From a virus (taxonomy: Duplodnaviria > Caudoviricetes): a stretch of 64,000 bases of DNA. Location: the IMG/VR virus record IMGVR_UViG_3300015607_004160; one strand, given 5' to 3'. The notes beneath the pieces are model-generated. The model did not search any database and had not been told where the DNA came from. It saw nothing but the letters and a program-made list of their open reading frames with translations. A program made the translations under genes and the position numbers. Position 1 is the stretch's first letter; every line of letters begins with the position of its first letter. Positions 6,497 through 36,822 of the stretch are shown here, in pieces.

Positions 6497-6799
6497 ATGA
6501 ATAAGGTTTTATTACAATTCTGGGAAGAATCAGAAAGAGGATGGGGAGTTAGACCAGATGGTGCATCACTACATATTAATGTAGAATCGTATAGAAAATA
6601 TCTTAATAATATTTATGATAGTAGAAGAGATATACAAGATGTTCCAAATGAGTATGCCAGAGTCGTTGGGTCAGTTATAGAAACAGTAGTAAGTGATGAT
6701 ATTTATAATATGCTATTATCAGAAAAAAATATAAGATTACCACAATATCAGTTGAACAATCTAATAAAATTAAAAGATATCATAGTAGATGCTAGCTAA
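6497..6799 (+). CDS. hypothetical phage protein
   Basis: WEESERGWGVRPDG.SLH motif. Confidence 0.65.
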   Translation: MNKVLLQFWEESERGWGVRPDGASLHINVESYRKYLNNIYDSRRDIQDVPNEYARVVGSVIETVVSDDIYNMLLSEKNIRLPQYQLNNLIKLKDIIVDAS

Positions 6800-34939: not shown

Positions 34940-35407
34940 ATGGACTTAATCTATAAAATATACTCGGTTTTCTTATATGATCATCAGTTAAATCATGATT
35001 ATCTCATTTTGTATAATTATGGTGATTACGATTTGCAGCGGGGGCTTGGATATGATATTGGATATTCGCTTAATAAAATTCACAATTTAGATAAATATTC
35101 TCCAAGTTTTAATGATGAATCTATTATAGAGATGCAAAATGCGGCAATAAGAGGTAATAAAATGTTTGTTAAGAATGATGGGTTCTTAACCTTAGTCAAA
35201 GGTGGAACCTCACCACGACCACGATATAATATCTATGATGTATACTGGAATGAAACAAAGTCCAATATTAATATTCATGAATATGAAGTTGCTGCTATTT
35301 GGAATGTTGGTAAGGATTCTTGCTCAGTCTATAGAATATGGGAAGAAAAAGATGAGAGAGAAAGAATAATAAGAAATAATAAGTTAAATTTACTATTAAC
35401 AATTTAA
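34940..35407 (+). CDS. hypothetical protein
   Basis: ends IRNNKLNLLL. Confidence 0.65.
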   Translation: MDLIYKIYSVFLYDHQLNHDYLILYNYGDYDLQRGLGYDIGYSLNKIHNLDKYSPSFNDESIIEMQNAAIRGNKMFVKNDGFLTLVKGGTSPRPRYNIYDVYWNETKSNINIHEYEVAAIWNVGKDSCSVYRIWEEKDERERIIRNNKLNLLLTI

Positions 35408-35447
35408 TATAAAAATATGGGTTTTCACTATTGAAATTTAAACTTTT

Positions 35448-35478
35448 TTTGAGTTTTCAAATATTATATATATCTTTG
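35448..35478 (+). promoter_or_regulatory. Bacteroidota-type promoter for the ncRNA/tmRNA cluster (TTTG-N19-TATCTTTG)
   Basis: consensus match. Confidence 0.7.
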
Positions 35479-35545
35479 TAAAGAAACAGGAAGGGTCTCT
35501 GGTCAGTCTGAAAAAGATAGGACGCACTTCTGGTCAGTTTCTTTA
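35479..35545 (+). ncRNA. putative structured RNA 1 with two AGG-N8-CTGGTCA strands
   Basis: outer stem TAAAGAAAC/GTTTCTTTA, inner hairpin GTCT-GAAAA-AGAT, symmetric 18x18 internal loop. Confidence 0.6.
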
Positions 35546-35551
35546 AATTAT

Positions 35552-35913
35552 GGGGGTGAATTGGAATAGATTCGCATCGTAATGGTAGTTAAGCAAGCAT
35601 CGGCTGAGTTATCCGATTAATAAATTGACATCAACGCTTTAAACGGCAAAACAAACGAAGTAGCAAGCAAAGAAGATTTAGTATTTGCTCTACGCAACAA
35701 CTTACTCACTGTGAATGAGTTTGAAGTAGCTTAATTGATACTTTCATAAAAATGTCACCTGAATCACAACAGTAAATAGTGATAGTTTTTTGTTAAATTC
35801 TTTGTGAACATAAAAATTAACTATTTTGATAATTTAGAAAAATTATCTAAGCTTGTGAATGATTAGTTATTATTAACTGAAGAAGACGGGAGAGTCGGAG
35901 CTCCCCACCTCCA
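35552..35913 (+). ncRNA. ssrA: tmRNA
   Basis: 5' GGGGGTG pairs with 3' CACCTCC-A including the G3.U Ala determinant; T-stem GGGAG/CTCCC; AAGC..CTAAGCTTG helix; internal tag ORF 35645-35734. Confidence 0.88.
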
Positions 35914-35917
35914 CAAA

Positions 35918-35996
35918 AAACCAACAAGGTAGGATAAAAAGCTGGACAGCCTTGAAAAAATAGGTAGGTGTTTTCTCTGGTCAGCCGAGTTGGTTT
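35918..35996 (+). ncRNA. putative structured RNA 2 with two AGG-N8-CTGGWCA strands
   Basis: outer stem AAACCAAC..GGT/GCC..GTTGGTTT, inner stem GCCT/AGGT, same loop geometry as RNA 1. Confidence 0.6.
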
Positions 35997-36077
35997 CTTT
36001 TTAATAACCTCAGCGGAATTGGACTGCTGTTTATTTCTTTTTATGATTAAAATATACATCTACACTAAAGAGCTCAA

Positions 36078-36106
36078 ATTTTGTTAAGTTTAAAACTTAA
36101 CAAAAT
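36078..36106. repeat. perfect 14-bp inverted repeat just before ATG 36109
   Basis: ATTTTGTTAAGTTT-A-AAACTTAACAAAAT. Confidence 0.8.
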
Positions 36107-36108
36107 AT

Positions 36109-36822
36109 ATGAGAAAAAACAAACACTTTGAAAAAGAGAAGGAATTCATTCGCCTTCAGAAGCAACTTGCTAAAAATTGGGAAACACAAAGGAGTTTAGG
36201 TTGGTCTGAACTTACTGAGCCCAAATTTATTGGATACAATGCTTATCTTGAACCAAGACAAGATATACAAAATCGTGATGATGCTTGGGTATTCTGGTAT
36301 ATCTGCCAAAACTTCGGAACAAAAACATTTGCTAAAAAAATTGAACTTTTTGATTGGGAAAGGAAAGGTAAATCTATATACAAAACAATGATTTATCATA
36401 TGCCTCGCATACATGGAATTAATGAATGGACTTATCTTAATCTTCCTCCACAAATAAAAAAATGGTTTACTGATGAGATTCCATTCCATGTACATGGATG
36501 GAACAGACATTCAAAATCTTACTATTGTAAAATACCAAATTTTTACTTTGATATCAAATATGAAAAAGAGTATAAAACTAAAGTAAAAATTTACAGCACT
36601 ATTCTCGAACAAGAAGAAGCTGAAATTGAATACATTCTTGATACTAAGTTTTACCATGAATGTAAAAATTACAGAAGACATAGAAAAGCGCCCAAACATT
36701 TCAGAAAATTTTTAAATAGATCACAAAGAGCTAAGTCTAAACAAACTCTTTTTAATATAATGGATGGAAAAGACTGTGAATTTGAGGATAATTACAGTGG
36801 GGCAGATTGGTTATGGGATTAA
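36109..36822 (+). CDS. basic, aromatic-rich hypothetical protein
   Basis: 237-aa ORF immediately downstream of the RNA cluster. Confidence 0.75.
   Translation: MRKNKHFEKEKEFIRLQKQLAKNWETQRSLGWSELTEPKFIGYNAYLEPRQDIQNRDDAWVFWYICQNFGTKTFAKKIELFDWERKGKSIYKTMIYHMPRIHGINEWTYLNLPPQIKKWFTDEIPFHVHGWNRHSKSYYCKIPNFYFDIKYEKEYKTKVKIYSTILEQEEAEIEYILDTKFYHECKNYRRHRKAPKHFRKFLNRSQRAKSKQTLFNIMDGKDCEFEDNYSGADWLWD

Follow-up and report, generated by a model that had tools for sequence, protein, structure and literature searches.

At the center of this analysis are two RNA hairpins, element 1 and element 2, which flank a transfer-messenger RNA (tmRNA)-like gene in a 64,000-nt stretch of Caudoviricetes DNA (the window, meaning the whole stretch analyzed) from IMG/VR record IMGVR_UViG_3300015607_004160. 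Both belong to a conserved RNA family which, in Bacteroidota, adjoins the gene for a protein of ~180 aa. A pattern scan of the window for AGG-N8-CTGGWCA, where N8 stands for eight variable nucleotides, returned exactly four matches, all on the plus strand, at 35488, 35519, 35931 and 35966. Shuffled versions of the window gave a mean of 0.05 matches, and none of 100 contained four. No copies beyond these four were found in the whole 144-kb viral record containing the window. The original prediction, made from the letters of this DNA, that the boxes occur in pairs, each pair lying between an outer stem and an inner hairpin on either side of the tmRNA, agreed with what we read from the sequence (Table 1). 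Element 1 ends 7 nt before the tmRNA 5′ end (GGGGGTG, 35552), and element 2 starts 4–5 nt past the discriminator A (35913).

The assignment of the central gene as a tmRNA was upheld in part. Its acceptor stem carries G3:U70, a T-arm is visible, and a tag frame of ~29 codons ends in NEFEVA-stop. Homologs of the gene are present in LR745206 and LR756502, two ~640-kb uncultured phages, where the tags end in PATV and LAVA. Against the assignment, the full-length alignment to Rfam RF00023 was sub-threshold (29.3 bits, E 7.3e-10, where the gathering score is 47), and ARAGORN did not detect the gene. Its 3′ end has no encoded CCA (...CCTCC-A-CAAAAAA). A Bacteroidota-type promoter, matching the consensus established for Bacteroides promoters, is predicted to drive element 1, the tmRNA and element 2, and the promoter before the tmRNA is common to the window and to both relatives.

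Covariance-model searches found the elements neither at the tmRNA loci of LR745206 (locus L001) and LR756502 (L002) nor anywhere in these two whole records. As two related phages are without the boxed RNA both at the tmRNA and genome-wide, the elements are accessory in this phage group. At the site of element 2, L001 has a plain terminator hairpin, CCAACT...AGTTGG, followed by a T-run; element 2 of the window is itself built inside a CCAAC...GTTGG stem. The tmRNA trailer of LR756502 (L002, 990–1050) holds a different long hairpin, AAAAGCCATTTGC...GCAAATGGCTTTT, with two internal AGG triplets and no CUG boxes. The covariance model of the RNA family (R1, see below) gave no match to this hairpin, which may be another RNA module inserted at the same site.

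Table 1. Features of the tmRNA-like locus in the window; R1 is the covariance model of the RNA family.
Feature	Position	Strand	Remarks
Bacteroidota-type promoter (predicted)	35448-35478	+	-33 TTTG 35448-35451; -7 TAtcTTTG 35471-35478; 19 nt between; read from sequence
Element 1	35480-35544	+	Boxes from pattern scan; R1 62.4 bits, E 7.5e-15
Element 1, outer stem AAAGAAAC/GTTTCTTT	35480-87/35537-44	+	
Element 1, first half	35488-505	+	AGG 35488-90; N8a 35491-98; CTGGTCA 35499-505
Element 1, inner hairpin	35506-18	+	GTCT-GAAAA-AGAT
Element 1, second half	35519-36	+	AGG 35519-21; N8b 35522-29; CTGGTCA 35530-36
tmRNA-like gene	35552-35916	+	Acceptor stem GGGGGTG/CACCTCC; G3:U70; discriminator A 35913
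Element 2, including T-run	35918-36002	+	R1 55.9 bits, E 6.2e-13; doubles as operon terminator
Element 2, outer stem AAACCAAC/GTTGGTTT	35918-25/35989-96	+	Second tier GGT/GCC
Element 2, first half	35931-48	+	AGG 35931-33; N8a 35934-41; CTGGACA 35942-48
Element 2, inner hairpin	35949-65	+	GCCT...AGGT
Element 2, second half	35966-83	+	AGG 35966-68; N8b 35969-76; CTGGTCA 35977-83
T-run 3′ of element 2	35997-36002	+	

A family of doubly bulged RNA hairpins

Viral, metagenomic and genome collections were scanned for the box pattern. Most raw matches were chance occurrences or coding repeats, and true members were kept by a filter for an outer and an inner stem, which left ~25 distinct sequences. 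The covariance model R1, built from 25 members, recovered both window copies (scores in Table 1) and divergent members, and the family now comprises ~40 distinct members with conserved boxes. Bacterial members were found in four Pedobacter species, one Flavobacterium, and metagenome-assembled genomes of Flavobacteriales, Sphingobacteriales and Bacteroidales, and viral members lie on contigs of 33–360 kb. In bacteria the RNA is a stand-alone gene of ~95 nt, consisting of a TAnnTTTG promoter 11–14 nt upstream, the hairpin and a rho-independent terminator, with promoter and terminator both placed on the AGG...CTGG strand. Copies are solitary, one or two per genome, and do not form arrays.

Rfam 15 showed no family on the element, either for the window at the gathering threshold or for the region 35300–36150 and eight member loci by E-value. 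The INPHARED cultured-phage collection gave no match to a consensus-like member, and our search of the literature found no description of the boxed RNA or of its ~180-aa protein. This is a real, conserved and structured RNA family that is absent from Rfam 15. Weak, half-length matches to R1 (E 0.04–0.4) at G000:C1:130719-130754, G005:C1:130736-130771 and G001:C1:264293-264346, which look like single AGG...CUGG arms or plain hairpins, are probably noise.

To analyze the structure we counted base pairs in 40 distinct homologs, in an alignment fitted to the two stems of R1 with the N8 columns modeled as unpaired. The outer and inner stems covary: 10 of 10 pairs were changed on both sides, and 92% of alignment cells paired compared with 79% in shuffles (0 of 500 shuffles as high), while sliding the partner strand reduced stem pairing to 25–39%. 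The expectation of fixed boxes and covarying stems was confirmed, with the boxes fixed within the main clade. The N8 segments behaved otherwise than the freely variable segments that had been proposed. They are not hypervariable but have a family consensus, RTWAAAAT, and the two segments of one RNA (N8a and N8b) pair with each other in antiparallel orientation in 67% of cells compared with 53% in shuffles (0 of 500), and in 34–50% when slid. Cells in which both partners had changed numbered 40, against 19 in shuffles. Since the N8 columns are unpaired in R1, this covariation is not a product of the alignment fit, and the 8-mers vary because N8a and N8b compensate each other. All eight pairs form in locus L193 (AGGTTAAT with ATTAATTT) and in L371 (GTAAAGAT with GTTTTTAT). 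In the window the N8 sequences are unlike the consensus, and six of eight pairs form both in element 1 (AAGGGTCT with ACGCACTT) and in element 2 (ATAAAAAG with TGTTTTCT); at a pairing chance of ~0.375 per position, at least six of eight would arise with a probability of ~0.04 per window element.

Unconstrained minimum-free-energy folds of L371, L370, L384 and L193 all gave the same bulged rod. From the base upward this consists of the outer stem, a central helix and an apical hairpin. The helix, of 12–14 bp, is made of AGG:CUG, N8a:N8b and CUG:AGG, and at each of its ends lies a bulge of 4–5 nt, (G)GWCA, located on the 3′ strand next to the outer stem and on the 5′ strand next to the apical hairpin. 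The RNA is a rod with pseudo-two-fold symmetry, and not the open, symmetric 18x18 internal loop with two guides that was first envisaged.

Several other pairings were considered and rejected. If the two CUGG boxes paired together, leaving two 8-nt bulges, both C-G pairs would be broken in a divergent clade whose halves each have CUGA, and this model was ruled out. Local hairpins formed by AGG-N8-CUGG within each half have conserved pairs that do not covary and equal the shuffles, and an AGG:WCA pairing does not hold in the clades with CUGAUGA or CUGAAAA. A canonical kink-turn (K-turn) was rejected for the main clade, which has a G where the sheared A is required; judged by its sequence, that clade should be unable to form one. 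In the most divergent bacterial clade (L380 and L384, positions 6646–6715) both halves have CUGAUGA(A) as their box, which corresponds to the core of the consensus for box C, and as N8 position 1 is A there, a K-turn might form.

The original prediction had regarded the elements as programmable dual-guide RNAs of a new RNA-guided system, each N8 acting as a guide in the manner of box C/D RNAs, TIGR or IS110. The layout is like that of stem-loop tigRNAs (PMC12045711; 10.64898/2026.09.09.750476), and the CUGAUGA clade has boxes similar to box C. However, N8a and N8b covary as a helix and have a consensus, the units are solitary, and the partner protein described below has a different fold. A search of the 144-kb record for paired targets of the 8+8 segments, in any orientation and with a gap of up to 12 nt, found none, nor was there complementarity to the tmRNA. 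Searched with the Nop-domain profile (PF01798) at E ≤ 1, five viral records that carry the RNA, G000 among them, had no match, while control archaea did, in keeping with the earlier remark that no Nop-domain protein was in sight. The TIGR box definitions are not matched on the transcribed strand, and a minus-strand reading as CCA...TG boxes was rejected, as the strand with promoter and terminator is that of AGG...CTGG. We regard a guide function as highly improbable.

It is equally hard to credit that the elements are functionless miniature mobile elements, such as a miniature inverted-repeat transposable element (MITE) or insertion hairpin, landing in hairpin loops and leaders. At one and the same locus some related phages do have the elements and others lack them, and element 2 was apparently inserted into a terminator hairpin. 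Nevertheless, the copy number is low, bacterial copies have their own promoter and terminator, neither target-site duplications nor, apart from the structural stem, terminal repeats are present, and the compensatory changes amount to selection on RNA structure. An integron attC site or MITE was likewise rejected on the variable stems, the lack of R/L cores and the copy number.

A ~180-aa protein adjoins the RNA

Clustering of open reading frames (ORFs) around member loci revealed one conserved ORF of ~180 aa, usually 30–150 nt upstream of the RNA on the same strand. With a profile hidden Markov model the protein was identified beside the RNA in 21 loci found by pattern, 2 of which are convergent. 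One copy of the protein gene is that of Pedobacter petrophilus LMG 29686 (G007:C11:53864-54400). Conversely, when bacterial loci were found through the protein (L378–L385), eight of eight had the RNA, 75–140 nt downstream, and L387 and L388, from a third, very divergent protein clade, have a matching divergent RNA. The RNA adjoins the protein gene in all protein-bearing loci examined (~30), among which the protein was never seen without it, and so the search for a co-occurring protein family that had been suggested was successful. Of the Bacteroidota genomes sampled, 151 were searched with the RNA model and 401 with the protein profile; each search matched three genomes, the same ones in both cases, and in all of them the two genes are adjacent. 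The one further RNA match, among 40 other Sphingobacteriaceae genomes, was an orphan. The module is sporadic, occurring in ~0.5% of sampled genomes.

The 7-nt box changes with the protein clade, and does so in both halves together, as CUGGWCA, CUGAUGA(A) or CUGAAAA; such joint change is what recognition by a symmetric protein would be expected to produce. In contrast to the protein, the RNA is often alone. In bacteria, orphans with a promoter and terminator of their own occur at L262, L317 and L372 and as second copies at L367 and L368, and at L288, L133, L178 and L388 the RNA stands beside protein genes that are truncated, internally deleted or frameshifted. This asymmetry, in which the protein is never without the RNA whilst the RNA is often without the protein, is the pattern expected of a toxin and its antitoxin. 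At L378 (Flavobacterium CP109995, 1761629–1774198) the module lies in a defense island with Shedu SduA_C, MutH with a Dcm DNA methylase and a helix-turn-helix protein, and AIPR. Two IS110 transposases are nearby, and L378 is the sole locus of ~30 with IS110 neighbors.

The protein family comprises 181 clusters at 50% identity, and its 65 clusters at 90% identity are all annotated as hypothetical. No match was found in Pfam, NCBIfam or PADLOC (E ≤ 0.1–1) or in PHROG, and there is no solved sequence homolog in the PDB. An AlphaFold2 model from 72 sequences had a predicted local distance difference test score (pLDDT) of 94.9. With both models, the top matches of an exhaustive structural aligner were RelE1, RelE, HigB2, PrpT, ParE, YoeB, YafQ, BrnT, CdiA-CT and T4 RegB; in VIA-align the best were RelE1 (Z 5.0, root mean square deviation 3.8, 77 aligned), RelE (4.9) and HigB2 (4.8), all below Z 8. 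The best PDB matches, to RelE, HigB, ParE, YoeB, BrnT and CdiA-CT toxins, had Z 3.6–5.0. About half of the top 50 VIA-align matches, all likewise at Z < 8, belong to the RelE/ParE (BECR) superfamily, and a search of the ESM Atlas returned a BrnT cluster among weak matches. RelE/ParE toxins have a beta-alpha-alpha-beta-beta-beta microbial RNase fold with acid and base residues. H51, E136, T138 and T141 are invariant in our family, and R55, R65, N122 and Q154 nearly so, a set compatible with a metal-independent RNase. A RelE/BrnT-like toxin core in the modeled protein is suggestive only.

A prediction of the protein as a homodimer passed, scoring 0.82 against 0.00 for the best of three controls. 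Among proteins of solved structure, 20 of 30 that are pairs of one chain reach this value, compared with 1 of 23 that are single chains. Contact agreement between runs was at least 86% and the partner pLDDT at least 81, and as the protein has no solved sequence homolog, the pass is unlikely to reflect a structure already known. The model shows a symmetric dimer with swapped strands, and its symmetry would match that of the two-fold RNA.

RNA-only copies in phages

In at least seven phage lineages the RNA is present as RNA-only copies, mostly inside tRNA or tmRNA operons. In five phage-like loci it stands at the head of a tRNA array or inside it, on the same strand, and in the window its copies bracket the tmRNA. 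The protein profile had no match in four complete RNA-carrying phage genomes, G001 (360 kb) and G002, G003 and G005 (between 39 and 134 kb, one of them 103 kb). Two fragments, G000 and G006, one of which is the record of the window, likewise had none. Across IMG/VR, searched with a 10-sequence alignment, the protein was found at only three loci, one of them a provirus.

Two phage-related loci differ in their surroundings. In the 360-kb phage (L013, 1100–1160, minus strand) a signal-peptide-like ORF of ~30 codons and a terminator come after the RNA and before the tRNA array. In L046 (3322–3804, minus strand), a provirus close to L058, the slot upstream of the RNA is occupied by an unrelated 161-aa ORF without a PHROG match, which could be an alternative partner or a replacement for the ~180-aa protein.

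One explanation of the viral copies is that they act only in cis, as stability or processing hairpins and as terminator of the tmRNA operon, gained by recombination and without a role in trans. The outer stem and T-run of element 2 do replace the plain terminator hairpin of L001, and element 1 is located in the leader. A plain hairpin, however, has no need to hold four boxes invariant through compensated divergence of the stems and N8, RNA with the same boxes is also present in unrelated phages, including the five tRNA-array loci, and the tmRNA of the relatives manages without the elements. For these reasons we consider a purely cis-acting role unlikely.

A candidate RNA antitoxin compared with known systems

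The reading we favor, to which we assign a probability of about one half, is that the bacterial module is a toxin with an RNA antitoxin, or an abortive-infection module, resembling type III toxin-antitoxin systems, and that the phage copies would be antitoxin mimics released by tRNA-type processing. The Bacteroidota module consists of two genes, and each element would be a copy of the one for the RNA. In the bacteria, the RNA would be made from its own strong promoter beside the gene for a predicted symmetric homodimer with a RelE/BrnT-like RNase-toxin core. A single RNA would present two identical bulge and box sites to this dimer and most likely keeps it inactive. Several observations point to a toxin with an RNA antitoxin and to viral mimicry of the latter: the protein that is never without RNA, the RNA that outlives decay of the protein, the patchy distribution and the RNA-only copies in phages.

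In the phage, the elements would be transcribed with the tmRNA from the host-type promoter. A cut by RNase P at the tmRNA 5′ end should then free element 1, and processing of the 3′ end should free element 2, as follows from the established maturation of tmRNA and tRNA. The original prediction had suggested release by tRNA-like processing; the positions of the elements fit release of the RNase P and RNase Z type, and the tRNA arrays offer parallels, so we infer release from position. During infection the freed elements may titrate or neutralize the host protein, like the pseudo-ToxI of phage phiTE. Mimicry of an antitoxin by a phage has been documented for ToxIN and phiTE (PMC3475682, PMC3401426). 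An alternative mentioned in passing in the original prediction, that the elements are protein-sponge RNAs, comes close to this explanation: a protein partner is now linked to the RNA, and binding to it in the infected host we infer.

Several points weigh against the antitoxin interpretation. The matches to the protein fold are weak, with Z of 3.4–5.6 (residues ~43–150), all under 8 and below the reliability level of the tool, and Foldseek with the models of the ~180-aa protein returned nothing at E ≤ 0.001. With a promoter of its own and a position downstream of the protein gene or convergent with it, the RNA departs from the canonical type III arrangement, in which an array of tandem direct repeats precedes the toxin gene in a single operon, separated from it by a terminator. 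Most bacterial contexts of the module are ordinary, and not defense islands. The predicted transcription start at the tmRNA locus falls within the 5′ strand of the outer stem of element 1, and the protein search covered 144 kb of the phage of the window, or ~23% of its genome.

These points bear also on a milder explanation, that the partnership of the RNA and the ~180-aa protein is of a kind other than toxin and antitoxin. The protein could be an RNA-binding or processing factor, or a regulator tuned by the RNA, which phages hijack or modulate. Adjacency, co-occurrence and the joint change of box and clade demonstrate partnership but not its sign, the fold matches give weak evidence of an RNase toxin, and several of the contexts are housekeeping neighborhoods. 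On the other hand, the asymmetry of the linkage, with intact RNA beside decayed genes and orphan RNAs, fits an inhibitor of a harmful protein better, and the sporadic distribution together with RNA-only copies in at least seven phage lineages also speaks against the milder explanation. We consider a partnership of this kind rather unlikely, if deserving of attention.

Returning to the antitoxin interpretation, we tentatively propose, in its fullest form, a previously unrecognized class of Bacteroidota RNA antitoxins, in which a homodimeric RelE/BrnT-like RNase would be paired with a doubly bulged hairpin, and which diverse phages, including one of ~0.6 Mb, may counter by RNA mimics carried in tRNA and tmRNA operons and freed by the host's own tRNA-processing enzymes. 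If this is true, the RNA-antitoxin systems would gain a protein fold and an RNA architecture that are both new, and would extend to Bacteroidota. RNA mimicry of antitoxins would be a recurrent natural strategy of phages, beyond a laboratory case in a single phage, and the non-tRNA hairpins of phage tRNA and tmRNA clusters would gain a concrete function. The RNA of ~65 nt and the dimer of the 180-aa protein would form a compact, symmetric pair of possible use as an orthogonal module for RNA-protein recognition. Whatever the function, the analysis yields a new RNA family and a new protein family.

The boxes had been noted at the outset to differ from those of the box C/D and TIGR families, and comparison agreed with this. 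Box C/D small RNAs have a C box, RUGAUGA, and a D box, CUGA, which form a K-turn by the terminal stem, with C′/D′ boxes internal. Our RNA shares their box order and two-fold layout, and one divergent clade has CUGAUGA. It differs in that the window copies carry AGG and CTGG(T/A)CA without a RUGAUGA/CUGA K-turn pair, have no L7Ae, Nop5 or fibrillarin context, and show no Rfam C/D match on the elements (35300–36150); free single-stranded guides, which in box C/D RNAs are complementary to rRNA or tRNA, are also absent, as N8a and N8b pair. The IS110 bridge RNA is encoded in the 5′ end of an IS110/IS1111 element, by a DEDD/Tnp_20 recombinase, and has two guide loops. The RNA described here is a single hairpin of ~65 nt, with IS110 transposases adjoining only L378.

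In stem-loop tigRNAs the order is stem, box, short segment, box, loop, box, segment, box and stem, and the boxes are CNA and YG (PMC12045711; 10.64898/2026.09.09.750476). As in the TIGR-Tas system, we find in phages a pseudo-symmetric hairpin in which fixed boxes, present twice, enclose a short segment of fixed length, and the models suggest that it is probably read by a symmetric protein dimer. Here, however, the boxes are AGG and CUGRWNA, the segments pair together instead of being free spacers, and the units are single. Tas is a Nop-domain protein, whereas no Nop-domain protein was found in the five viral records searched and the partner is of unrelated fold.

RNA anti-CRISPRs are solitary repeat units of phages that mimic immune RNAs of the host. 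They offer a parallel in that a phage carries a copy of the RNA part of a host protein-RNA system without the protein; the host system in our case is a different, uncharacterized one. The closest likeness is to the type III toxin-antitoxin systems ToxIN, CptIN and TenpIN (PMC3401426, PMC3475682). These combine, as our module appears to, a small protein with an RNase-toxin-like fold (modeled in our case) and a structured RNA, here of two tandem repeat units of ~32 nt, and are sporadic in distribution and sometimes located in defense islands. Unlike them, our protein has no match to the ToxN, AbiQ, CptN or TenpN families, its core being RelE/BrnT-like in the models, and the RNA is one bulged hairpin rather than an array of pseudoknot units, lying downstream or convergent with its own promoter. 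In type III systems the RNA binds the toxin and neutralizes it, and the toxin processes the RNA; for our pair the strict linkage, the joint change of box and clade and the asymmetric decay speak for such an interaction only indirectly. Given the different toxin family, RNA architecture and gene order, the module stands outside the known type III families and at most works like them. The likeness extends to the phages, where RNA-only look-alikes resemble the known route by which phiTE evades ToxIN (PMC3401426, PMC3475682).

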